Shown here one piece after another: positions 9,734-41,874 of a stretch of DNA of 64,000 bases. Location: positions 4,361 through 68,360 of the forward strand of contig JALOSW010000002.1 of NCBI GenBank assembly GCA_025458245.1, given 5' to 3'. Both the position numbers and the translations under genes were made by a program. Under the pieces are notes generated by a model. That model made no database searches. It was not told where the DNA came from and worked only from the letters and a program-made list of their open reading frames with translations. How positions within the stretch are numbered: position 1 is the first letter of the stretch; each line of letters opens with the position of its first letter. Source of the DNA: Burkholderiales bacterium. Its GTDB lineage: Bacteria; Pseudomonadota; Gammaproteobacteria; Burkholderiales; SG8-39.

Positions 9734-11424
9734 GCCGCGGCCTCCGCGTGCTCGACGACGAGCTGCACGCTCTGCGCGCCGTTCCACTCGTCGATGGCGA
9801 GGCGGTACGCGGCGCGGACGCGCGCGGGGAGCGGCGCCTCGCGCCGGAAGTGGATGGCCGACAGGCTGCGGCCGTCCTTGGCGAGCTTGAGCTTGAGGTG
9901 CTTCTCGCCGACCAGGCGTTGGCTCTCGACGACGAATTCGTCGGCGAACAGCGGCTGCGGGAACCCCTGGCCCCATACCGGCTCGTCGAGCATTCGCACC
10001 GTGTCGAGATTGAAATAAGCGGCATCGAGCGGGCCGTCGGTCTCGAGGGTGCGGCGGAAGAGTTCGGGCCCGGCCAATTCGCGCGCGACCCCCTCGAACG
10101 CGTCGCGGAAGCGCGCGAGGTCCGCTGCTGCGAGGGTGAGGCCCGCCGCCGCCGCGTGGCCGCCGAAGCGGCGGATGAGGCCCGGGTCGCGCTTGGACAC
10201 GAGATCGAGCGCGTCGCGCAGGTGGAACCCCGGAATCGAGCGGCCCGAGCCGCGCAGCTCGCCGCCGTCGCTCGGCGCGAACGCGAACGTCGGACGATGC
10301 GTGCGCTCGCGGATGCGCGAGGCGAGGATGCCCACCACGCCCTGATGCCAACCGGGATCGAAGAGCGCGACGCTCGCGCGGCGCTCGACGTCGAGGTCGG
10401 CGAGCAGCCCCTCCGCCGATTCGATCATGCCGCTCTCGATGTCGCGCCGTTCGCGATTGAGGTCGTCGAGCTGCCGGGCGATGGCGAGCGCCCGCTCCAT
10501 GTTTTCGGTGACGAGACACTCGATGCCGAGGCTCATGTCCGCGAGCCGCCCCGCGGCGTTGAGGCGCGGCCCCAGCGCGAAGCCGAGGTCGAAGGCGGTC
10601 GCGCGGCGCGCGTCGCGCCCCGCCACGGCGAAGAGCGCCGCGATGCCGGGCTGCATGCGCCCGGCGCGGATGCGCCGCAGGCCCTGCGACACGAGCACGC
10701 GATTGTTCGCGTCGAGCCGCACGACGTCGGCCACCGTGCCGAGCGCCACGAGGTCGAGCAGTGCCGCGAGGTTGGGCTCGGGGCGATCGGCGAAGGCGTT
10801 GCGGCGGCGCAGCTCGGCGCGCAGCGCGAGCATGACGTAGAACATGACGCCGACGCCCGCGATCGCCTTGGATGGGAACGCGTCGCCCGGCTGGTTCGGG
10901 TTCACGATCACCGTCGCCGCGGGCAGCGTCTCGCCCGGCAGGTGGTGATCGGTGATCACGGTCGCGATGCCGAGCGCGCTCGCTGCCGCCACGCCGTCGA
11001 CGCTCGCGATGCCGTTGTCCACCGTGACGATCACGTCCGGCCGTCGCGCGGCGGCGAGCGCGACCAGCTCCGGGGTGAGCCCGTAGCCGAGGACGAAGCG
11101 ATCCGGCACCAGGTATTCCACCGTCGCCCCGAACGCCGCGAGTGCGCGCATCCCCACCGCACAGGCGGTGGCCCCGTCGCAGTCGTAGTCGGCGACGATG
11201 AGAAGACGCTTCGCTGCAGCAATGGCGTCGGCGAGAAAGCGGGCCGCGGCGTCGGCGTTGCGGAGTTGCCCGGGCGGAACGAGGCGCTCGAGCGCGATGT
11301 CCACCTCGGCCGCGCTGCCCACGCCGCGCGCGGCATAGAGCCGCGAGAGCAGGGGATGCACCCCCTCGCGCACGAGACGCTGCTCGAGGACGAGGGGTGC
11401 CTTGCGGACCGTGAGCCGGGTCAT
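9730..11424 (-). CDS. recJ: single-stranded-DNA-specific exonuclease RecJ
   Basis: ORF 9730..11772, likely start MTRLTVRKAP at 11424. DHH motifs (IVADYDCDGATA, VTVDNGI, VITDHH) and DHHA1 (GGHAAAAG). Confidence 0.95.
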   Translation of the reverse strand: MTRLTVRKAPLVLEQRLVREGVHPLLSRLYAARGVGSAAEVDIALERLVPPGQLRNADAAARFLADAIAAAKRLLIVADYDCDGATACAVGMRALAAFGATVEYLVPDRFVLGYGLTPELVALAAARRPDVIVTVDNGIASVDGVAAASALGIATVITDHHLPGETLPAATVIVNPNQPGDAFPSKAIAGVGVMFYVMLALRAELRRRNAFADRPEPNLAALLDLVALGTVADVVRLDANNRVLVSQGLRRIRAGRMQPGIAALFAVAGRDARRATAFDLGFALGPRLNAAGRLADMSLGIECLVTENMERALAIARQLDDLNRERRDIESGMIESAEGLLADLDVERRASVALFDPGWHQGVVGILASRIRERTHRPTFAFAPSDGGELRGSGRSIPGFHLRDALDLVSKRDPGLIRRFGGHAAAAGLTLAAADLARFRDAFEGVARELAGPELFRRTLETDGPLDAAYFNLDTVRMLDEPVWGQGFPQPLFADEFVVESQRLVGEKHLKLKLAKDGRSLSAIHFRREAPLPARVRAAYRLAIDEWNGAQSVQLVVEHAEAAA

Positions 11425-11491
11425 GGGATCCGCGTCGGGTTCAGCCCGGCGCTCGCTGCTGCCGATTCTCGGACATGTGAGGAGCGCCCTT

Positions 11492-12541
11492 TCAGTCGTC
11501 GGGCTTGCCCGCAGCCCACGCGACATGCTCGCCGAGGCTGCGCGTGCGCCGCCAGAAGTATCGCAGGTCCTGTCGCGTCGTCTCCACGCGCAGCGAGCCG
11601 CCTTCTCCGGGCGAGGCAATCGTGAGCATCCCGACGCGGCCTTCCTTGAGCGCGGCGAGCAACGGCGCGATCCAGTTGTGCTCGATCGCGGCCAGGCGCT
11701 CCCGCCATGCGCCCGCCTCGCCGTAGGCGGCGGGGCTGCGCAGGTCGTCGAGCACGACGAGCGCGACGCCATCGCGTGGCGCTTGCGCGAGAAGCGTGGC
11801 GCCGGATGCGGGCAGGCTGCCGAGCGCCGCCCGCGACGCGATCGCCAGGCCGCGCGCGAGGGGCTCGTTCGCGTAGACGTGCACGTCGCTGCCGGGCGCC
11901 ACGGGTGCGATCCGCCCCGCGCCCCAGAGCCAGATGCTGTTGACGGCCGGCGCGCCCCGGCTTTCGCGCGCGGCGTTCACCGGATCGGCGTGCAGGAGCA
12001 TCTGCGCCTCGTTCGCGATGCCGTGCCACTTGACGGCGTCCGCACCGATCGCGAGTTCCATCGAGACGGCGCGTCCGCGCGCATGGGGAAGCGGCGTCGT
12101 CGTGAGCCGCGGCAGCGCGCTCAGGCGCAGGTACCACCGGTCGGGTCGCACCGGAAAGAAAACCAGGCCGTCCGCCGCGAAGTGCCGGTTGAGCGACTCG
12201 GCGAGCTGCTCGGCCTCGGCGCGATCGATCGCGAACGTGGCCGCGTCGGCGAGCAGCAGCGCCTCGCGCGCGACCTGCACGTGCACGGGATCGGCGCGCA
12301 TCCACGCGTCCGCACCGGGGTCGCCGCCGTCCGCGAGCAAAGTGTAGGGCGCCACGGGGAGTTCGTCGCCGAGCGCCACGCCGAACTCGGCAAGCAGCCA
12401 GCCCTCGAGCGTTTCGGCGGGGGCCGACGTGCGCCGACCCTTCGCGAGCAGATGCTCGAGGGCGGGCGCCGGAAGGTCGTCGTAGACCCCGGAAACCTCG
12501 CCGGGCCACACGAGATCCGGAATGACGAGACGGACGTTCAT
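11492..12541 (-). CDS. conserved hypothetical protein (resembles the family often labelled RpfE-type regulatory / phosphoglycerate-mutase-like)
   Basis: 349-aa ORF with strong third-position GC bias and a non-repetitive acidic composition. The family assignment is from memory only. Confidence 0.55.
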   Translation of the reverse strand: MNVRLVIPDLVWPGEVSGVYDDLPAPALEHLLAKGRRTSAPAETLEGWLLAEFGVALGDELPVAPYTLLADGGDPGADAWMRADPVHVQVAREALLLADAATFAIDRAEAEQLAESLNRHFAADGLVFFPVRPDRWYLRLSALPRLTTTPLPHARGRAVSMELAIGADAVKWHGIANEAQMLLHADPVNAARESRGAPAVNSIWLWGAGRIAPVAPGSDVHVYANEPLARGLAIASRAALGSLPASGATLLAQAPRDGVALVVLDDLRSPAAYGEAGAWRERLAAIEHNWIAPLLAALKEGRVGMLTIASPGEGGSLRVETTRQDLRYFWRRTRSLGEHVAWAAGKPDD

Positions 12542-12663
12542 GCTGTCGATTCCAGTCTAGCATGCGGCCCGCACGACGGAACCCTGCGCGGGCCTGCCGC
12601 CGGCGTCGCGCCTATCGCCGCGGCCCTTGTGGGACAATCCCGCCCAAGGAATCCGCCCGCCAC

Positions 12664-31476: not shown

Positions 31477-33018
31477 GTGACCGGCACCCCGACGGAAATC
31501 GAGCTGAAGCTTCTGCTCGAGCCGCGCGACGGCCGCCGACTGCTGCGGCATCCCGCGGTCATGGCGCTCAAAGCGGGGCGTGCGCGCACGCTGCGATTCG
31601 TCGCGACCTATTTCGACACGCCGGAGCGCGATCTCGGCCGGGCCGGCATCGCCTTGCGCGTTCGCCAGGAGGGCGCGCGCTGGATCCAGACCGTCAAGGC
31701 GGGAGGCGAAGGCGCGGGCGGGCTGCATCGGCGCGAGGAGATCGAGTGGCCGCTCGCCGCGGACCGCGTCGACCTCGCGCTTCTGGCGGACTCGCCGTTC
31801 GCGAAGCTCTTCTCGCGGCCGCGCGTGCGCGAGGGGCTCGCGCCGGTGTTCGTCACCGAGTTCACGCGCACCTCGGTGCCGCTCGCGTTTCCCGATGGCT
31901 CGGCAGGCGAGCTGGCGCTCGATGTCGGCGAAATTCGTGCGGCGGGCAAGGTCGAGCCGATCGCTGAAGCCGAGATCGAGATGCGTGGAGGCTCGCCGGC
32001 GACGGCTTTCGCGCTCGCGCTCGCGGTGTGCGACGACATCCCGCTGCGCCTCGGTGCGGCGAGCAAAGCCGAGAGGGGGTTCGCGCTCGCGGAAGCGCGC
32101 GCGCCGGGGCCGCGCAAGGCCGCCGCGGTGGCGCTGGATCCGCGTATGACCGCGGGCGAGGCGCTGCGGCGCATCGCGTGGGCTGCGATCGGGCAAATGC
32201 AGGCGAACGAGGCGGGCACCGTCGAGGCGGCCGATCCGGAGTACCTGCACCAGCTCCGCGTCGGCCTGCGCCGCCTGCGCTCGATCCTCGCGCTCGCGCG
32301 CGCGCCGCTCGCGGCGTCGATTCATGCGGCGTTGCTCGACGACTTGCGCGCGCTGCAGCAAGCGCTCGGGCCGGCGCGCGACTGGGACGTGTTCGCGACC
32401 GAGACGCTGCCGCCGATCGTCGCTGCGTTTCCCGCCGTGACGGGCCTCAAGGGCATCCGGGTGCGCGCGGGCCAGCTGCGACGGGCGCACGATCGGGAAG
32501 CGGCGGAGGTCGTCGCTGCGCGCGAGTTCCAGAAGCGTCTGCTGCGGCTCGGGCTCGCGCTCACCGACGCGACGCTGGCGCCGCGCGACGAGGCGTCGGC
32601 ATGGCTCGGAAAGCCCGCGCGCGAGTACGCCGCCGGCATTCTCGACTCGCGCCATCGCAAGCTCGGCAAGCGGGGCGCGCGCCTCGCCACGGCGACGGCG
32701 GAAGAACGCCACGCGACGCGCATTGCCGGCAAGAAGCTCCGCTACGCGGCGGAGTTTTTCGCCCCGCTTTTTCCGGGCAAGCGCGCGAAGCGCTTTGCCG
32801 GCGCGCTGGCGGAGCTCCAGGACGTGCTCGGGGCGCTGAACGACGCGGCCGTGACCACGAAGCTCCTCGGGGAGCTGGAGGGCGCGGGCAAGACGCCGCC
32901 AGATGCGGCCTCGGTCGGCATCGTGCGCGGCTGGGTGGGTGGCGCCGCGCACCATGGCACCACGGAGCTCGCCGCGCGCTGGAAGGCCTTCCGGCGCCAC
33001 GATCCGTTCTGGCGCTAG
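31477..33018 (+). CDS. CYTH and CHAD domain-containing protein
   Basis: GTG start 4 nt after the relA stop. EIELKLLL CYTH signature at the N-terminus. The C-terminal half has CHAD-type helices (YLHQLRVGLRRLRS, RHATRIAGKKLRYAAEFF). Confidence 0.88.
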   Translation: MTGTPTEIELKLLLEPRDGRRLLRHPAVMALKAGRARTLRFVATYFDTPERDLGRAGIALRVRQEGARWIQTVKAGGEGAGGLHRREEIEWPLAADRVDLALLADSPFAKLFSRPRVREGLAPVFVTEFTRTSVPLAFPDGSAGELALDVGEIRAAGKVEPIAEAEIEMRGGSPATAFALALAVCDDIPLRLGAASKAERGFALAEARAPGPRKAAAVALDPRMTAGEALRRIAWAAIGQMQANEAGTVEAADPEYLHQLRVGLRRLRSILALARAPLAASIHAALLDDLRALQQALGPARDWDVFATETLPPIVAAFPAVTGLKGIRVRAGQLRRAHDREAAEVVAAREFQKRLLRLGLALTDATLAPRDEASAWLGKPAREYAAGILDSRHRKLGKRGARLATATAEERHATRIAGKKLRYAAEFFAPLFPGKRAKRFAGALAELQDVLGALNDAAVTTKLLGELEGAGKTPPDAASVGIVRGWVGGAAHHGTTELAARWKAFRRHDPFWR

Positions 33019-33061
33019 GCGCGCGGCACTGGCCCACGGCCCTGCGAAGTCGAGAGAGACC

Positions 33062-34039
33062 ATGGCATCCGACCAACCCGGCAAGAAACCGTCGCTCGCG
33101 GCGCGCGTACCGGCGGGGCTCTATTCGATCGTGATGGGACTCGCCGGGCTCGGCGGGGCGTGGCTTCAGGCGGCACAGCTCCTGGCATGGCCCGCGGCGC
33201 CGGGCTTCGGGCTGATCGTCCTCGCCGGCATCGCATGGCTCGTCGTGACCGCGCTCCTCGCCGTCAAGTTCGTTACGGCGCGTGAACGGTTCGACGCCGA
33301 GCTCGCGCATCCCTCGCATGGCGCCCCGTACACGCTCGCGCCGGCGACGCTGTGCCTCCTGGTGCCGCTCTTCGATGCCTGGACGCCGGCGCTCGCGCGA
33401 CCCATCCTTCTGGTGGGGGCCTTCGGCGCCGTCGCACTCGGCGCCGGGCTGGTCGGGCGCTGGGTGAGCGAGCGGCGCGAGCTCTCGAGCTTCACGCCGA
33501 CGCTGCATTTCCCGCTGGTTGCAGGCGGCCTGCTCGGCGCGCTCGGCGCCGGCGTCCTCGGCATGCCCGGCCTGGGCGTCATGCTCTTCGGCGCCGGCCT
33601 GTTCGCATGGCTGATCGGCGCGTCGGTGTCGCTGCACCGGCTCCTCTTCGGCGAGCCCCTGCCGCCTCCGATGCGACCGCTGGTCGCGATCGAGCTCGCG
33701 CCGCCTGCCATCGGCGCCGTCGCGTGGATCGTGCTTTCCGAAGGCGCACCGGATGCGCTCGCGGCGCTCTTCTTCGGCTATGCGCTGTTTCTCGCGGCCC
33801 TCCTCGCCGGACTCGCGCGCTGGTTCGCCGCCGCGCCGTTCGGTCCGCCCTGGTGGGCGTTCACCTTTCCTGCGGCTGCGCTGTCGAATGCCGCGATCCG
33901 GTTCGCGCTCGGCTATCCCGAAACCGGCCTGACCGTGCTGGCCGTCGGCCTGTTCGCGCTCGCGAATGCGATCGCGCTGTACGTCGCACTGCGCACGGCT
34001 GTCGCGCTCGCCCGCGGCCGATTTCTGCCGCCCGGTTGA
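33062..34039 (+). CDS. TehA/Mae1 (TDT, SLAC1-like) family anion transporter
   Basis: 325 aa from MASDQPGKK. About 10 TM segments. GLYSIVMGLAGLGGAW N-terminal motif is typical of TehA-like proteins. Confidence 0.8.
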   Translation: MASDQPGKKPSLAARVPAGLYSIVMGLAGLGGAWLQAAQLLAWPAAPGFGLIVLAGIAWLVVTALLAVKFVTARERFDAELAHPSHGAPYTLAPATLCLLVPLFDAWTPALARPILLVGAFGAVALGAGLVGRWVSERRELSSFTPTLHFPLVAGGLLGALGAGVLGMPGLGVMLFGAGLFAWLIGASVSLHRLLFGEPLPPPMRPLVAIELAPPAIGAVAWIVLSEGAPDALAALFFGYALFLAALLAGLARWFAAAPFGPPWWAFTFPAAALSNAAIRFALGYPETGLTVLAVGLFALANAIALYVALRTAVALARGRFLPPG

Positions 34040-36114: not shown

Positions 36115-36278
36115 CGGCGCCGCCGCTCGTCCGATGCGCCGGTGCAGGGCGCGCTGCCAGGAGGCAGCCCGCCTCGGAGCCATTCAGGCGCGGTTGCGGA
36201 CCGCGACTTCGGGATCTTCGCTCGGACGAAAACGCTCATGGGCTGGGCGCTTGTATCTCGTTCTTCGCGTCGCCGCGC

Positions 36279-36334
36279 AGGGTAGGGGCCGCACATGACG
36301 CGTCCATGACGAATTCGTTGCGACGCGATGACCC
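36279..36334 (-). promoter_or_regulatory. Pho-box array (four 7-mers at exact 11-bp phase) plus -10 TACCCT
   Basis: Minus strand reads GGGTCAT cgcg TCGCAAC gaat TCGTCAT ggac GCGTCAT, then a 10-nt gap, then TACCCT. This is the same geometry as E. coli pstS. Confidence 0.6.
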
Positions 36335-36506
36335 GGCTTCGGGCGTGCGCGGGGAATCGGCCACGCGCCGGATGTGACGGCCGGATGAAGTTTTCGTGAA
36401 ACCGTCGCGAGATGCGGGTCGAGCGATTCTCACTGGCGACGGTGCGAGCTAAATTGGCTTCGCGCCTCGCGTTGCCGGCGCCTAACCCGAACAATTACTT
36501 CGCGCC

Positions 36507-39500
36507 GTGACCAAACAGAGCGCGAGCCGCCGCAAGCCGGCAGCAAGCTCGAACCGCACCCGCCGCACGCCGCGCCGAACGCGATTCGCCCCGCGCGCCG
36601 ACGCGGACGCGAGCGTCGCGGCGGGCGCGATCTCTCATGCCATGGCGGGGCTCGATGTCCTGCACGACACGGTGCCTGGTCGGGTCCGGTTTCGTTGCGA
36701 GGCGATCATCGACCGTCCCGCCCGTGCGCAGGCAGTCACTGCGGCGTTGGCCGATCTCGCCGGCGTCGCCAAGGCATCCGCGAGCGCACTGACCGGGTCC
36801 GTGCTCGTCGCGTTCGCGCCGCCCGCGACTTCGGCGTCGCTCGCCACCGCCGTCGCGGCCGCGGCGCGCGGCGCGCGCGCGAATGGGCGAGTCAGCGCGA
36901 ACGGCGCGTCCGGCGGCGCGGCGTCGGCTCCGCGATCGGCCATCCGTGACCGGCAGCCCGTACGCGTCGACGCGGGCGTTGCGCCGCACGCCGGACCCGC
37001 GTGGCACAGCCTGCCGCTGCAGCAGGCGATCTCGCGCCTCGCGGCAAATCGCATCTCGGGATTGGCCGACGCCGAGGCCGCGTTTCGGCTGCGCAAGTTC
37101 GGGCCCAACGAGCTGCCGCGCAGCGAGCCGCGTTCGGCGGGAGCGATCTTCCGGGAGCAGCTCACGACCCTCCCGATCGCGCTGCTCGACGCATCCGCCC
37201 TCGTCTCCCTGCTTACCGGCGGCCTCGCCGACGCGATCGCGATCGCCGGCGTGGTGCTGCTCAACGCGGGGATCGCGACCGCCACCGAGAGGCAGGCGGA
37301 GCGCACGATTCTCGGGCTGGCGAGCTATGCGCCGCACCCGGTGCGCGTGATCCGCGACGGGCGGCGGCACGAAGTGCTGCCCGCGGCTCTGGTTCGAGGC
37401 GATCTCATCGAGCTCGAGCCGGGCACGCTCGTTCCCGCCGACGCACGGCTCGTCGCGGCGGACGACCTGACGGTGAACGAGGCGGCGCTGACCGGCGAGG
37501 CACTGCCCGTCCACAAAGACGCCACGGTCAGGCTGCGTCCGGAGGTGCCTCTCGGCGACCGCGTCAACTTCGTGTTCCGGGGCACTGCCGTGACCGGCGG
37601 GCGCGGCCTGGCGATCGTTACGGCCACCGGCGCGGAGACCGAGATCGGCCAGATTCAGGGCCTGCTCGGCTCGGTGCGTCCGCCGGAGACGCCGATCCAG
37701 CGGCAGCTCGGCGAGGTCGGACGCGAACTCGTGATCGCGAACGGCCTCATCTGCGCCGGCGTGCTGGCGCTCGGGCTCTTGCGGGGCCAGGGTCTGGTGC
37801 CGATGCTCCGCAGTGCGATCGCGCTGGCGGTTGCCGCGATCCCCGAGGGCCTGCCCGCCGTCGCGACGACGACGCTCGCGCTGGGCGTGCAGGACATGCG
37901 CCGACGGAACGTGCTCGTGCGCAAGATCGAGGCTGTCGAGACGCTCGGCGCGGTGCAGGTCGTCGGTCTCGACAAGACCGGTACGCTCACGGAAAACCGT
38001 ATGGCGGCCGTCGCGATCCACGTCGGCGGCGAGCGCTACGCCCTCGACGGCGGCCGCATGACGCGCGACGGACAACCGGCGGACGGGGCGGCGAGGGACC
38101 TCGCTGCGCGCATGTTCGAAGCGGCGTCGCTTTGCAGCGACGCGACCCTCGGCAAGGCGAATGGCGCGACGATCGTCGGCGGGACGCCCACAGAGACCGC
38201 GCTGGTGCAGGCTGCGCTCGACCTCGGCGTCGATGTCGCCGCGGCGCGCCGCGCCGCGCCGGTGCTCGCGACCGTGCCGCGGACGCTGGGCCGCAAACGG
38301 ATGAGCACGCTTCACGGCGCCGGGCGCGCGCGCGTGCTCTACGTGAAGGGCGATCCGGTGGAAGTGCTCGAGCGCTGCAGCCACGTACTCGGGCGCGAGG
38401 GCCGGTTGCCGATCGACGCGGCCGCGCGGAGCGAGATCCTCAAAGCGAACCAGCGCATGGCCGGAAAGGCGCTGCGCGTGCTGGGCATGGCGTTTCGCCC
38501 GGGCGCGGGCGGTGCGAGGAGCGACAAGGGCCTCACCTGGCTCGGGCTGGCGGGACTGGCGAACCCGATCCGCGCGGGGTCCGTGCGGGCCATCAAGACG
38601 CTGCATGGCGCCGGCATTCGCACGGTCATGATCACCGGCGACCAGAGTGCGACCGCATTCGCGATCGCGCGGGAGCTCGACCTCGGCGATGGCGGCGAGA
38701 TCCGCGTCCTCGAAGCAGGGCAGGTGAAGGGCGTCGATCCCAAGGTCCTCGCTGCCATCGCTGCGAACCCGCACGTGTTCGCGCGCGTGAGCCCGGTCGA
38801 CAAGCTCGAGATCGTGCGCGCGCTGCAGGCCGACGGCCGCATCGTCGCGATGACCGGAGACGGCATCAACGACGGTCCTGCGCTCAAGGCCGCGGACGTC
38901 GGCGTTGCCATGGGTGCCGGCGGGACCGACGTCGCGCGCGAGGTCGCCGACATCGTGCTCGCCACCGACGATCTGGACGGCGTGGTCGAGGCCGTGCGCC
39001 TCGGGCGGGCGACCTACGCGAACATCCGAAAAGTGCTGCGCTTTCTGGTGAGCACCAACTCTGCCGAGACCATGGTCATGCTCGGTGCCGCCATCGCCGG
39101 GTGGCCCGAGCCGCTCAAGCCGATGCAGCTCCTCTGGCTCAATCTGGTGACCGACGTGCTGCCGGGCCTCGCGCTCGGACTCGAGCCGCCGGAGCCGGAC
39201 GTGCTTGCGGAGCCGCCGCACGATCCGCGTGCGCCGATCCTGGCGCCGCGCGACTTCCGACGGCTGCTGGTGGAAGGCTCGGTGCTCGGCGGCGCAACGC
39301 TCGCCGCGTTCCTCGCCGAAGGCGGTGCACGCGGTCCGCACCAGGCCGCGCCCACGCCCTCGCCGTCCCGCGCGAGCACGGTTGCGTTCCATGGGCTCAC
39401 ACTTTCGCAGCTCGCGCACGCGGTCGTCTGCCGCTCCGAGCACCATGGGATCCTCGAGGAGCTGCGCCGTCCGCCGAACCGAAAGCTCTACGCCGCGCTC

Positions 39501-39701
39501 GCTGCGTGCCTCGCGATGCAGGCGGGCGCGCAGCTCGCACCGTTCACGCGGCGGCTGCTCGGCCTCACGCCGCTGGCGGCCTCCGACCTCGCGGCGATCC
39601 TCGCAGTGGGCTTGGGCTCGGTGGCCGCCAACGAGGCGATCGGGGCGATCATTCGCGGGGCGCGGCACGCCCGCATCCCTACGGCAAGGAACACCTCATG
39701 A
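36507..39701 (+). CDS. P2-type (SERCA-like) cation-transporting P-type ATPase with N-terminal cysteine-less HMA-like domain
   Basis: DKTGTLTENRM, TGDGINDGPALKAADVGVAMG, TM4 motif AIPEGLPAV, TGEALPV. The N-terminal roughly 90 aa contain PGRVRFRCEAI...LAGVAKASASALTGSVLVAF. The start could be GTG 36507 or ATG 36642. Confidence 0.9.
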   Translation: MTKQSASRRKPAASSNRTRRTPRRTRFAPRADADASVAAGAISHAMAGLDVLHDTVPGRVRFRCEAIIDRPARAQAVTAALADLAGVAKASASALTGSVLVAFAPPATSASLATAVAAAARGARANGRVSANGASGGAASAPRSAIRDRQPVRVDAGVAPHAGPAWHSLPLQQAISRLAANRISGLADAEAAFRLRKFGPNELPRSEPRSAGAIFREQLTTLPIALLDASALVSLLTGGLADAIAIAGVVLLNAGIATATERQAERTILGLASYAPHPVRVIRDGRRHEVLPAALVRGDLIELEPGTLVPADARLVAADDLTVNEAALTGEALPVHKDATVRLRPEVPLGDRVNFVFRGTAVTGGRGLAIVTATGAETEIGQIQGLLGSVRPPETPIQRQLGEVGRELVIANGLICAGVLALGLLRGQGLVPMLRSAIALAVAAIPEGLPAVATTTLALGVQDMRRRNVLVRKIEAVETLGAVQVVGLDKTGTLTENRMAAVAIHVGGERYALDGGRMTRDGQPADGAARDLAARMFEAASLCSDATLGKANGATIVGGTPTETALVQAALDLGVDVAAARRAAPVLATVPRTLGRKRMSTLHGAGRARVLYVKGDPVEVLERCSHVLGREGRLPIDAAARSEILKANQRMAGKALRVLGMAFRPGAGGARSDKGLTWLGLAGLANPIRAGSVRAIKTLHGAGIRTVMITGDQSATAFAIARELDLGDGGEIRVLEAGQVKGVDPKVLAAIAANPHVFARVSPVDKLEIVRALQADGRIVAMTGDGINDGPALKAADVGVAMGAGGTDVAREVADIVLATDDLDGVVEAVRLGRATYANIRKVLRFLVSTNSAETMVMLGAAIAGWPEPLKPMQLLWLNLVTDVLPGLALGLEPPEPDVLAEPPHDPRAPILAPRDFRRLLVEGSVLGGATLAAFLAEGGARGPHQAAPTPSPSRASTVAFHGLTLSQLAHAVVCRSEHHGILEELRRPPNRKLYAALAACLAMQAGAQLAPFTRRLLGLTPLAASDLAAILAVGLGSVAANEAIGAIIRGARHARIPTARNTS

Positions 39702-40867
39702 CGCTCAAGGAAATGATCTTCACGTCGGAGTCGGTCACGCCCGGTCACCCCGACAAGCTCTGCGACCAGATCAGCGACGCTGCGGTCGATGCGTTCCTGC
39801 AGCAGGACGAGGACGCCCGCATCATCGTCGAGTGCGCCATCGCGACCGGCGTGCTCTTCCTCGCCGCCCGGTTCGCGGCCCAGGCGAACGTGGACATGCC
39901 GACGCTCGCGCGGGGTGTGATCGCCGACGTGGGCTACACGGGCGAAAGCTTCGACGCGCGCAGCTGCTCGATCCTCACGAGCTTCACGCCGCTCGACGGC
40001 TCGGCGCGTCCGGACGCGCGCCGTGACGGGTCGGAGCCCGCGCAGGAGCAGGCCAACGCGTTCGGATTCGCCTGCCGCGAAACGGCTGCGTTCATGCCGA
40101 TGCCGATCTGGCTCGCGCACAAGCTCGCGCGCGAGCTCGAGGCGGCGCGGGGACGCGGGCTCGATTGGCTGGGGCCCGACGGCAAGACCCAGGTCGCCGT
40201 GCATTACCGCGACGGGAAGCCGGTCGGGATCAACAGCCTGACCATCACTGCGGCGACCGCCGATCGCCCGTTGCGGAAATCGATGGTCGAGGAAGCGATG
40301 CGCGAACTGGTGATCAAGCGGGCCTTCCGCGACGAGGCGCTCAGGCCCGATGCTTCCTGCACCGTTCACGTGAACCCGGGCGGCCCCTACCTCGTCGGCG
40401 GGCCGGCGAAGCATTCGGGCCTCACCGGGCGCAAGAACGGCATCGACACCTACGGGGAATACGCACGCCAGAGCGGGGCGGCGCTCTCGGGCAAGGATCC
40501 GTCGCGTATCGACCGGATCGGCGCGTACGCGGCGCGCCACGCTGCGAAGAACATCGTCGCCGCCGGCCTCGCCGAGCGCTGCGAGGTGCATCTCTCGTAT
40601 GCGATCGGGAGCGCACACCCGATCAGCGTGGCGGTCGACACCTTCGACACGGGCAGGATCCCCGACGACGACATCGCCGATCGCGTCCTGCAGGCCGCCG
40701 ATTTCCGGCCTGCGGCGATCGAAGCGCGCTTCGGCCTGCGCCGGCGCGCGGCCGCGGCCGGCGAGCGGGGGTTCTTCAAGCCGCTCGCCGTGTACGGGCA
40801 AGTCGGTCGCGTCGACCTCGACGTGCCGTGGGAGGCCGTCGACCTCGCGGCCGATCTCGCGCGATGA
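39698..40867 (+). CDS. divergent S-adenosylmethionine synthetase (MetK) paralogue
   Basis: 389 aa. IFTSESVTPGHPDKLCDQISDAAVD, GPDGKTQV, GLTGRKNGIDTYGE, LSGKDPSRIDRIGAYAARHAAKNIVAAGLA align with MetK. The ATG overlaps the ATPase stop (ATGA). Confidence 0.85.
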   Translation: MTLKEMIFTSESVTPGHPDKLCDQISDAAVDAFLQQDEDARIIVECAIATGVLFLAARFAAQANVDMPTLARGVIADVGYTGESFDARSCSILTSFTPLDGSARPDARRDGSEPAQEQANAFGFACRETAAFMPMPIWLAHKLARELEAARGRGLDWLGPDGKTQVAVHYRDGKPVGINSLTITAATADRPLRKSMVEEAMRELVIKRAFRDEALRPDASCTVHVNPGGPYLVGGPAKHSGLTGRKNGIDTYGEYARQSGAALSGKDPSRIDRIGAYAARHAAKNIVAAGLAERCEVHLSYAIGSAHPISVAVDTFDTGRIPDDDIADRVLQAADFRPAAIEARFGLRRRAAAAGERGFFKPLAVYGQVGRVDLDVPWEAVDLAADLAR

Positions 40868-40885: not shown

Positions 40886-41320
40886 TCAGTCGGCCGCGCG
40901 GCGTGCGCGCCGGAAGAGTTCGGTCGCGTACCAGAACAACGTGACCGCAGGCGGGAGGATCCGTTTCTCGCCGATCTGCAGAAGTCCGAAGACAGCGAAC
41001 GCAGCGGCCGCGAGCGCGGGTGCGGCGCGCGCGGTCGGCACGAGCGGTTGATCGCGGCCGGCATCGGGGTCGGCCGCGACGAGCTGAAGCATCCCCGCGC
41101 GCACCGCGCGTTCGGCGTATTCGTCGAACCGACCCTCGTGGGTCATCACGACCGTGCCGCTGAACGCGCGGATGCTCACCGTTTCGATGCCATCCAGTTC
41201 GCCGAGCCGGGTGGCGATGGCGGCGAGTGCGCCGGCGTCGCCGGCGTGCTCGCGGAATCGCAGCCGCGTGCGGCCCTCCATGGCATGTGCCAACTCGGCG
41301 CGCGGCGCATGTTCAGGCAT
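40886..41320 (-). CDS. HMA-like (cysteine-less, HMA_2-type) domain membrane protein
   Basis: 144 aa. HAMEGRTRLRFRE...LGELDGIETVSIRAFSGTVVMTH parallels the ATPase N-terminal domain. C-terminal hydrophobic segment AAPALAAAAFAVFGLLQIG. Confidence 0.6.
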   Translation of the reverse strand: MPEHAPRAELAHAMEGRTRLRFREHAGDAGALAAIATRLGELDGIETVSIRAFSGTVVMTHEGRFDEYAERAVRAGMLQLVAADPDAGRDQPLVPTARAAPALAAAAFAVFGLLQIGEKRILPPAVTLFWYATELFRRARRAAD

Positions 41321-41666
41321 TGGCGGTCGCCTCGGCTGCGGCGCGGCGCGTCACTCGCTTGGCGGTCTTGCGCGCGGGAGATCTGGCTCTGCCGTCCGAC
41401 GCGCGCTTGCGCGCGGGCGCGGCCCCGCCCGACGAGGCCGGCGCGGACGCGGTTGTCGCGGCTTCGAGACGGGCCTCGGCGTAGGTGTCTTCGAGCGTCT
41501 CAACGAACTCGACCGCCTTGACCTGAACCTGGCGCGCGAGCACCAGCGCTGCCTTGATGATTTCCTTCAACGCCGGTTGACTGTTGCGCGAAACGACCGG
41601 CGCGGCCAGCGCGAGGACGGCGCCTGCGAGTGCGCCGAGCGCAAAGGGAACGATGGGAGCTGCCAT
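41313..41666 (-). CDS. small membrane-anchored protein, DUF5132-like
   Basis: 117 aa from MAAPIVPFALGALAGAVLALAAPVV, followed by an amphipathic helix and a basic tail. AAGGAA RBS. Its stop overlaps the next gene by 8 nt. The family call is from memory. Confidence 0.5.
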   Translation of the reverse strand: MAAPIVPFALGALAGAVLALAAPVVSRNSQPALKEIIKAALVLARQVQVKAVEFVETLEDTYAEARLEAATTASAPASSGGAAPARKRASDGRARSPARKTAKRVTRRAAAEATANA

Positions 41667-41874
41667 TGCCTTTCCTTCATGAATGATGAGAAGCAATTCA
41701 TTCTAGTGCGCTGCGGCGCGTATTTCCGCCTTGCCGGTGCGAATTCGAGGGGGCGCTCGAGAGCGCGTATTGCAGGCGAAATATTTCGGTAACAGAGACG
41801 GCGCGCAGATCGCCGGCGCGCCCTCGACCAGCGCGACGGGCCGCGAAGAAGCGGTGTGTCGGCCCGCAGAGCCC

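Follow-up and report, generated by a model that had tools for sequence, protein, structure and literature searches.

Few enzymes are as highly conserved as methionine adenosyltransferase (MetK), which synthesizes S-adenosylmethionine (SAM) and the active site of which is considered to be invariant in bacteria and eukaryotes. In the enzyme from E. coli, methionine is bound by Q98, D238, and E55′, and adenosine by D163, R229, F230, and S99′ (Kozbial & Mushegian, 2005, PMC1282579). The residue K165 contacts O4′/O5′ of the nucleotide (PMC8715544). Here, we analyse a MetK-like protein of 389 amino acids (aa) in which the methionine-binding residues are replaced and which is encoded directly downstream of a Ca-type P-type ATPase in a Burkholderiales bacterium (assembly GCA_025458245.1, contig JALOSW010000002.1). 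The complete stretch of 64,000 nucleotides (nt) that was analysed is referred to as the window. Feature coordinates are those of the window, and active site residues are numbered according to E. coli MetK. The two genes and their junction are:

36507 to 39701, plus strand: P2A (Ca-type) P-type ATPase, 1064 aa, with an N-terminal CoBaHMA (HMA_2) domain (based on Pfam, NCBIfam, and PDB matches, and on motifs)
39698 to 39701, plus strand: start/stop overlap ATGA between the pump gene and the MetK-like gene (based on the sequence)
39698 to 40867, plus strand: MetK-fold paralogue, 389 aa, member of a pump-linked clade (based on Pfam, TIGR01034, alignments, AF2/Foldseek, and a tree)

We are confident that the 389-aa protein is not a SAM synthetase and that it is a functional partner of the pump. 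On balance, we prefer to view it as a neofunctionalised MetK-fold protein which no longer acts as SAM synthetase and which serves as a dedicated cytoplasmic partner of the upstream P2A pump. The name under which it is found in public records, methionine adenosyltransferase, is probably wrong. The pump-linked MetK-like clade to which it belongs is undescribed and was defined in this analysis; it is separate and widespread.

The gene at 39698-40867 is a frame of 389 codons which is uninterrupted by stops. The encoded protein matches all three S-AdoMet_synt Pfam domains (PF00438, PF02772, PF02773) with E-values from 1e-49 to 5e-29 and aligns end to end with bacterial MetKs when compared to PDB sequences by phmmer (E ~1e-84). 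Its score for TIGR01034 (metK) is 326.9 bits and is thus marginally above the cut-off of 309.4. The AF2 model, for which the family alignment was used as input, has a mean pLDDT of 87.8 and a pTM of 0.89. When this model was searched against the PDB with Foldseek, the top 50 matches were all MetK chains, the first being E. coli MetK, on which the predicted structure superposes over the full fold (TM-scores 0.89/0.92, rmsd 2.2 Å).

Active site residues were called from three types of alignment: phmmer against solved MetKs; MAFFT together with the canonical MetK from the same genome and with an E. coli MetK sequence that served for numbering only; and hhalign, by which a family profile of 30 sequences was aligned to a canonical profile of 11 sequences. 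The three methods agree that HPDK (H14/D16), PDGK (D163/K165), GLTGRK (R244/K245), SGKD (K265), and IDR (D271) are retained. The complete set of kept residues is H14, D16, K17, D20, E42, D163, K165, Q167, R244, K245, K265, D271, R272, and I302, and it includes every Mg2+/triphosphate ligand (H14, D16, K165, R244, K245, K265, D271). At the adenosine site, D163 is kept and F230 is represented by Y, R229 by P, and S99 by D. The methionine-binding trio E55/Q98/D238 is replaced by R, L, and H, so that none of the positions 55, 98, and 238 carries Asp, Glu, or Gln. The loop around Q98 is rebuilt and shortened by ~5-12 residues, the aligned residue being Leu according to MAFFT and hhalign, and Thr according to phmmer. 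Changes are found at T43→C, G54→A, E55→R, S99→D, and D118→E (conservative), at R229→P, F230→Y, D238→H, G253→E, and H257→Q, and at G258→S, G260→A, F262→L, and K269→R. At the level of motifs, GGEITT has become AARFAA, GDxGLTGRK has become KHSGLTGRK, and GGGAFSGKD has become SGAALSGKD.

A first-pass annotation, made by eye, had described the protein as a MetK paralogue which keeps triphosphate-binding residues and loses methionine-binding ones. This description is supported by the alignments, by family-wide conservation, and by synteny (see below). It holds for the retained motifs, for the losses of E55, Q98, and D238, and for the altered GGGAFSGKD motif. The same annotation had listed D118 as lost, which we correct, because the residue is Glu in the 389-aa protein and N/E/D/H within the family. 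The changes K269→R and T43→C are new. All residues for the Mg2+-triphosphate unit (H14, D16, R244, K245, K265, and D271, plus E42) are kept, while the zwitterion-binding methionine site has been converted to a basic R/H/R cluster. As E42 and D238 presumably share the K+ site of canonical MetK, the replacement of D238 by His probably abolishes that site.

These replacements are not restricted to the window. When 5.8 billion proteins were searched, at least 120 clusters were obtained which are 61-90% identical to the 389-aa protein and which are all either named SAM synthetase or nameless. For a family sample, 160 loci from two scans of one-genome-per-species contigs were sorted by their active site residues, resulting in a clean split between the paralogue type and the canonical type. 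Among 132 proteins of the paralogue type, H238 and R269 are found in 132/132, and H14, D16, E42, R244, K245, and K265 are equally invariant. At position 55, R predominates (120 proteins) over K (7) and H (5), C43 is present in 126 of 131, D163 in 131 of 132, and position 271 is occupied by D (109) or E (23). Other positions are variable: position 98 (L/M), positions 99 and 229 (both mostly P), K165 (present in 115), position 118 (N in 72, E in 35, D in 11), and position 230, which is aromatic in 94 proteins (F in 85, Y in 9) and otherwise aliphatic. Adenosine contacts are thus partly changed (S99, R229) and partly variable (F230, K165). The canonical E55/Q98/D238 trio occurs in no member of the paralogue type, whereas all 32 canonical proteins carry E55, Q98, D118, D238, and K269. 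Judged from the aligned sequences, the combination of D238H, K269R, and a basic residue at position 55 in 132/132 proteins is far beyond chance, and the replacements represent a conserved basic set (R/K55, H238, R269) rather than random losses. The 389-aa protein carries the complete family signature, which consists of C43, R/K/H55, H238, and R269 together with intact H14, D16, R244, K245, and K265.

In a maximum-likelihood tree, the paralogues form one clade with a support of 100/100 and a long stem, apart from all canonical MetKs, including the one from the same genome. The dN/dS ratio between family members is 0.14-0.23 (0.16 for the 389-aa protein versus that from locus L006). The clade is old and separate, and it is clearly under purifying selection, which is strict for the MetK scaffold and its Mg2+-triphosphate clamp. 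A profile search against 1.84 billion cluster representatives (50% identity) revealed 22 clusters of the paralogue type among the top 150. Divergent representatives are devoid of K165, F230, and D118 but have H14, D16, E42, H238, R244, K245, K265, R269, and D271. A site-by-site comparison showed two loops to be under constraint in canonical MetK but relaxed in the family, namely the gating loop (98-108) and the GAGDQG loop (115-120). Fixed differences between the two groups are G54A, D238H, G258S, F262L, K269R, V270I, and A274G. The clade was encountered in about ten phyla or classes (Alpha-, Beta-, and Gammaproteobacteria, Desulfobacterota, Nitrospirota, Chloroflexota, Deinococcota, Cyanobacteria, Methylomirabilota, and Binatota). 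Genes for IS605, IS630, and DDE transposases flank the pump/MetK-like pair in Scytonema (L090) and in a gammaproteobacterial metagenome-assembled genome (MAG; L091). Such flanks, together with a sporadic distribution within the order, fit to horizontal spread of the module.

Some MetK-like lineages (P0127, P0134, P0173, P0188, P0193, P0201, and P0243) match neither the canonical pattern nor that of the pump-linked clade. Their substitutions include D238 to N/S/L/A/F and K269 to H/Q/G, and one of these proteins (P0201) has 820 aa. The MetK fold may have been re-tooled several times independently.

A search of the assembly which contains the window with TIGR01034 gave two matches. One is the gene at 39698-40867 (326.8 bits), and the other is a canonical metK on another contig (601.6 bits) which has every canonical residue. 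A canonical metK elsewhere in the genome, for which the first-pass annotation had suggested to look, is thus present. Among 151 genomes from the same order, MetK was found in 150, and the paralogue only in the genome of the window and in one other, in both cases in addition to the canonical gene. Canonical MetK was also found in 24/24 further genomes with a paralogue (463-628 bits, compared to 303-416 bits for the paralogues). In these genomes, the paralogue always coexists with a canonical MetK and is never the SAM synthetase of the cell. It is inherited jointly with a single type of Ca-type pump, which is headed by a CoBaHMA domain.

Two paralogue copies per genome occur in some Nostocales and in Hydrococcus. 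Fischerella thermalis PCC 7521, Chlorogloeopsis fritschii PCC 6912, Fischerella sp. PCC 9431, and Hydrococcus rivularis (G161, G163, G166, and G172) each have two paralogues (~385-416 bits each) plus a canonical metK. A study on calcyanin and intracellular Ca-carbonate (PMC8890360) also features Chlorogloeopsis fritschii PCC 6912 and the genus Fischerella.

The pump encoded upstream matches the Pfam domains E1-E2_ATPase and Cation_ATPase_N/C; its N-terminal HMA_2 match has 24.2 bits, which is below the cut-off of 30. Its best NCBIfam models are PMR1/SERCA-type Ca pumps, every one of which scores under its cut-off, and the nearest solved structures are Listeria LMCA1, SPCA1, and SERCA. The motifs PEGL (transmembrane segment 4), N..E (segment 5), and N..[TS]D (segment 6) are kept, and a pattern scan detected them in 14/16 sampled lineages. 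In SERCA, the motifs PEGL, N..E, and N..TD form the Ca2+ sites. A pump homologue ends just before the start of the MetK-like gene in every paralogue locus for which upstream DNA is available, with a single exception (L005, see below), while no such pump was found at any of the 32 canonical MetK loci. According to the coordinates of called genes, pump and MetK-like gene overlap by 4 nt at four loci (L087, L088, L090, L091) and by 11 nt at L003, and are separated by 4-12 nt at L086 and L089. ATGA overlaps recur across phyla.

In the window, the ATG of the MetK-like gene shares the ATGA at 39698-39701 with the TGA of the pump gene (context ctcATGAcg), and AAGGA is found 8-12 nt 5′ of this ATG. 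Such an ATGA overlap is a signature of translational coupling, so that the pump and the MetK-like protein are probably co-translated. The first-pass annotation had considered the protein to be made in 1:1 coupling with a cation pump. Overlap and synteny support that the two are made together; the 1:1 coupling concerns translation as deduced from the ATGA overlap and not stoichiometry. A fusion of the two genes was considered and rejected: their frames differ, and long open reading frames (ORFs) in the frame of the MetK-like gene, such as 37001-40867, are read-through artefacts of the kind that is abundant in the window due to its G+C content of ~70%. Two paralogue matches contain one in-frame stop each (G165:C1:3259323-3260492 with TAA and G157:C34:18042-19214 with TGA). 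These stops may be due to a search that read through the overlapping pump stop, to sequencing error, or to a local pseudogene.

ORFs around 27 diverse loci were clustered by BLAST, and only two recurrent neighbour families were detected besides the pump: HMA_2 proteins of ~145-170 aa, the C-terminus of which is hydrophobic, and single-transmembrane (TM) proteins of ~90-127 aa. Both are represented in the window:

40886 to 41320, minus strand: CoBaHMA (HMA_2) protein, 144 aa, with a C-terminal hydrophobic hairpin (PF19991, 30.7 bits at a cut-off of 30), convergent with the MetK-like gene
41313 to 41696, minus strand: DUF5132-like single-TM protein, 127 aa, from an ORF that starts with TTG; the true start is likely the ATG at 41666 (MAAPIVPF...)

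Homologues of the 144-aa protein adjoin the pair at most loci. The DUF5132-like gene overlaps the CoBaHMA gene by 8 nt; its 127-aa product has no Pfam match of its own but clusters by BLAST with neighbours at 22/27 loci, several of which match PF17195 (DUF5132). In Chloroflexota and Desulfobacterota, all four genes form a colinear series (DUF5132, HMA_2, pump, MetK-like), while the small pair is located downstream in convergent orientation in Alpha-, Beta-, and Gammaproteobacteria. The domain HMA_2 is identical to CoBaHMA, which was first seen in calcyanin, the cyanobacterial marker protein for intracellular amorphous Ca-carbonate (PMC8890360). In a Desulfobacteraceae genome (L087), a ParA/MipZ-like ATPase and a third HMA_2 protein are encoded 3′ of the MetK-like gene (11229-11858 and 12175-12546), and in Scytonema (L090) a MamS_MamX-domain gene and a CBS-CP12 gene are found nearby (1443-1895).

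Genes related to phosphate, to cations, or to anions are found more loosely around the pair. In the window, these include:

31477 to 33018, plus strand: CYTH-CHAD protein (triphosphate-tunnel and CHAD domains, based on Pfam), 3.5 kb upstream and listed as context only
32903 to 34039, plus strand: SLAC1/TehA-type anion channel, following the CYTH-CHAD gene

The longest ORF for the channel overlaps the 3′ end of the CYTH-CHAD gene by ~115 nt, so that the true start is probably further downstream. Other neighbours in the window are a PlcP-like phosphoesterase gene (divergent from the pump), PAP2, and dgkA, as well as phoX, ppk1, phoU, and ppx, which are candidate genes named by position. A CYTH-CHAD gene is directly beside the pair in Methylocystis echinoides (L003) and near it at L012. 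Neighbours are CYTH-CHAD and MgtE in Methylocystis, PHO4, PhoU_div, and a ParA-like ATPase in a Desulfobacteraceae genome, Na_Ca_ex and PhoU_div in Methylomonas rivi, and a PlcP-like gene in a gammaproteobacterial MAG. Just one canonical MetK locus had any phosphate or cation neighbour match. The assumption that phosphate genes belong to a conserved core was rejected, since CYTH-CHAD, PhoU_div, PHO4, and PlcP-like genes occur in one or a few lineages each. Pho boxes of the E. coli type, the consensus of which is invalid outside proteobacteria, were found on the coding strand upstream of the operon at the four proteobacterial loci L011, L027, L088, and L051 (11/14, shuffle p 0.015-0.03), in three of these at −47 to −63. 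The best Pho-box-like site of the window is at 36295-36312 in the intergenic gap 36184-36506 between the PlcP-like gene and the pump gene, a direct repeat ATGAC-N6-ATGAC on the minus strand (TCGTCATGGACGCGTCAT, 10/14).

How such a protein might act can be outlined from what is known about MetK partial reactions. The E. coli MetK mutants D238N and D118N reportedly lose SAM synthesis ~1000-fold and keep most of the tripolyphosphatase activity, which is reported to be lost when the Mg ligands D16 and D271 are mutated (Taylor & Markham, JBC 1999). The family resembles the tripolyphosphatase partial reaction of MetK in that it keeps the Mg ligands and the basic triphosphate clamp, which is the set for hydrolysis of tripolyphosphate (PPPi). 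It resembles the D118N/D238N mutants in having lost residues whose mutation ends SAM synthesis and spares tripolyphosphatase activity, but its replacements are specific basic residues and not neutral ones. As the pattern of kept and lost residues matches this split, we favour a partner which cleaves or senses Mg-triphosphate. The MetK-like protein would still bind Mg-ATP or Mg-tripolyphosphate, and the ligand would be either cleaved (by tripolyphosphatase activity or from ATP to adenosine and PPPi, both being MetK partial reactions) or sensed. The R/H/R pocket would hold an anion in place of the methionine zwitterion, and phosphate, polyphosphate, or nucleotide status would thereby be linked to pump activity. 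One of the Foldseek matches, 8jzg, is according to its entry title a C. glutamicum MetK crystal with adenosine, triphosphate, and SAM. This title suggests that adenosine and triphosphate are able to share a MetK active site, and a MetK without methionine could by analogy give adenosine and PPPi from ATP. A role where Ca2+/Mg2+ handling meets phosphate economy might be indicated by PhoU_div, PHO4, Na_Ca_ex, MgtE, CYTH-CHAD, and the candidate genes ppk1/ppx/phoU/phoX. We put forward a specific triphosphate-hydrolase or sensor mechanism only tentatively.

Several observations weigh against a dedicated pump partner that acts on triphosphate. At L005, on a Burkholderiales chromosome (G151), the paralogue stands alone and a pump with 67% identity is 0.46 Mb away, and thus adjacency is not absolute. 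Phosphate-related neighbours are specific for certain lineages and lie outside the conserved core. The Pho-box-like site of the window faces the divergent PlcP-like gene and is non-significant (shuffle p = 0.1), and we thus do not claim Pho control for the copy at 39698-40867. The AF2 model is that of a monomer, and its only regions of low confidence are two active site loops (240-245 and 255-261). Finally, residues which serve adenosyl transfer and not PPPi hydrolysis are largely kept in the family, and in the 389-aa protein as well: H14, which contacts O5′/P-alpha, D163, K165 (115/132), and F/Y at position 230 (94/132). Their persistence makes adenosyl transfer to an anionic acceptor a serious rival, even if we regard it as fairly unlikely. 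Such an enzyme would let an anionic nucleophile, held by R55/H238/R269, attack C5′ of ATP, and a novel adenosyl compound plus PPPi would result, to be used by the pump system or to regulate it. The acceptor could be, among others, a methionine analogue of the de-amino, keto, or hydroxy type, a different thioether or thiol acid, or else an inorganic anion. The exchange of two acidic amine-binding residues for Arg/His with a basic residue kept at position 269 would fit re-tuning for an anionic ligand better than decay, and the clear purifying selection is in line with this. However, divergent representatives drop K165, F230, and D118 yet keep the triphosphate set, S99 and R229 are replaced, the gating and GAGDQG loops are unconstrained in the family, and no acceptor-pathway genes are conserved beside the pair at the 27 loci.

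The protein might also be a catalytically silent pseudoenzyme, a structural or regulatory pump subunit on a MetK scaffold which perhaps docks on the basic CoBaHMA domain. Compatible with this are the adjacent position and the translational coupling of the pump gene and the MetK-like gene across about ten phyla, the relaxed substrate loops, and the variability of several catalytic site positions in divergent members. We consider it quite unlikely, because H14, D16, R244, K245, K265, and D/E271 as well as GHPDK and GLTGRK are strictly invariant in 132 sequences, which is hard to explain if no ligand is bound there. That the protein is a second functional SAM synthetase, an isozyme for local or conditional SAM supply, is what its public name, its score above the TIGR01034 equivalog cut-off, and its intact fold and triphosphate site would imply. 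This is very unlikely, given that three methionine contacts are replaced which are invariant in every canonical MetK examined, that the score is about half of that of the canonical copy, and that the paralogue groups in a clade of its own and always co-occurs with a canonical MetK. A decaying duplicate or an annotation artefact without function could be postulated from the altered motifs alone. The frame is intact, dN/dS is low, family-specific residues are invariant over 132 sequences, and synteny extends across phyla, so that we give this practically no credence; specifically, a decaying pseudogene is rejected by dN/dS and the invariant family-specific residues. The preferred reading is that of a neofunctionalised partner of the P2A pump. 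A far-reaching version, to which we assign little probability, would make it an obligate enzyme partner of a CoBaHMA-gated Ca2+ pump. From ATP, it would release or hold PPPi, a strong Ca2+ chelator, or it would transfer adenosyl groups to an anionic acceptor. In concert with the membrane proteins of the CoBaHMA-hairpin and DUF5132 types, it would serve to fill or empty an as yet unrecognised intracellular store of Ca-(poly)phosphate or Ca-carbonate that is tied to phosphate economy.

A full-text literature search, the scope of which did not include the CoBaHMA paper by Gaschignard et al. (2024), returned no description of a pump-linked MetK paralogue family. The authors of the Methylococcus capsulatus genome confine themselves to noting that there are two divergent metK genes (PMC517821). 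Because the paralogues score above the equivalog cut-off and carry the name methionine adenosyltransferase in public records, apparent metK redundancy is inflated in metabolic reconstructions, and the two Methylococcus capsulatus genes would be an example if one copy belongs to the pump-linked clade. A clade with a re-tooled methionine pocket and a fixed association with a Ca-type pump suggests that the MetK fold has an activity which is not yet described, and that the same holds for an accessory requirement of a P-type ATPase. As the pump/MetK-like pair is carried by cultured methanotrophs and Nostocales, the question is directly testable.

When compared to described systems, the 389-aa protein is closest to MetK itself (EC 2.5.1.6, TIGR01034), with which it shares the three-domain fold (TM-score ~0.9, rmsd ~2 Å to E. 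coli MetK), 41-44% identity to the canonical MetK of its own genome, identical GHPDK, GLTGRK, and SGKD motifs, the Mg ligands D16/D271, and the K+-site residue E42. It differs from MetK by R, L, and H in place of E55, Q98, and D238 and by R in place of K269, and the paralogues differ by a shortened and unconstrained gating loop, by a relaxed GAGDQG loop, by forming a separate clade, by never being the sole MetK of a genome, and by their position downstream of a P-type ATPase.

The pump is similar to the P2A Ca2+-ATPases LMCA1, SPCA1, and SERCA, to which it aligns over the full core (E ~1e-127) with the ion site motifs being kept. It differs by an extra N-terminal CoBaHMA domain of ~165 aa and by scoring below every NCBIfam equivalog cut-off. 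No MetK-like partner is known for LMCA1, SPCA1, or SERCA. Ferrosome (fez) clusters are set apart by pump class, as they combine the P1B-6 ATPase FezB with FezA/FezC, while the window encodes a P2A pump.

With respect to the neighbourhood, the closest counterpart is the ccyA locus of Microcystis aeruginosa PCC 7806, a candidate for intracellular amorphous Ca-carbonate formation. In Microcystis, genes for DUF5132 proteins, CoBaHMA proteins, and a Ca2+/H+ exchanger are found on the flanks of ccyA, and several of these neighbours, including the exchanger, are co-expressed with ccyA (bioRxiv 10.1101/2024.07.07.602159). Both loci thus have proteins with CoBaHMA plus a helical hairpin and single-TM DUF5132 proteins beside a Ca2+ transporter. 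This transporter is a Ca2+/H+ exchanger at the ccyA locus, in the description of which (bioRxiv 10.1101/2024.07.07.602159) no MetK-like gene is mentioned, whereas a CoBaHMA-fused P2A ATPase and a MetK-like gene are found in the window.

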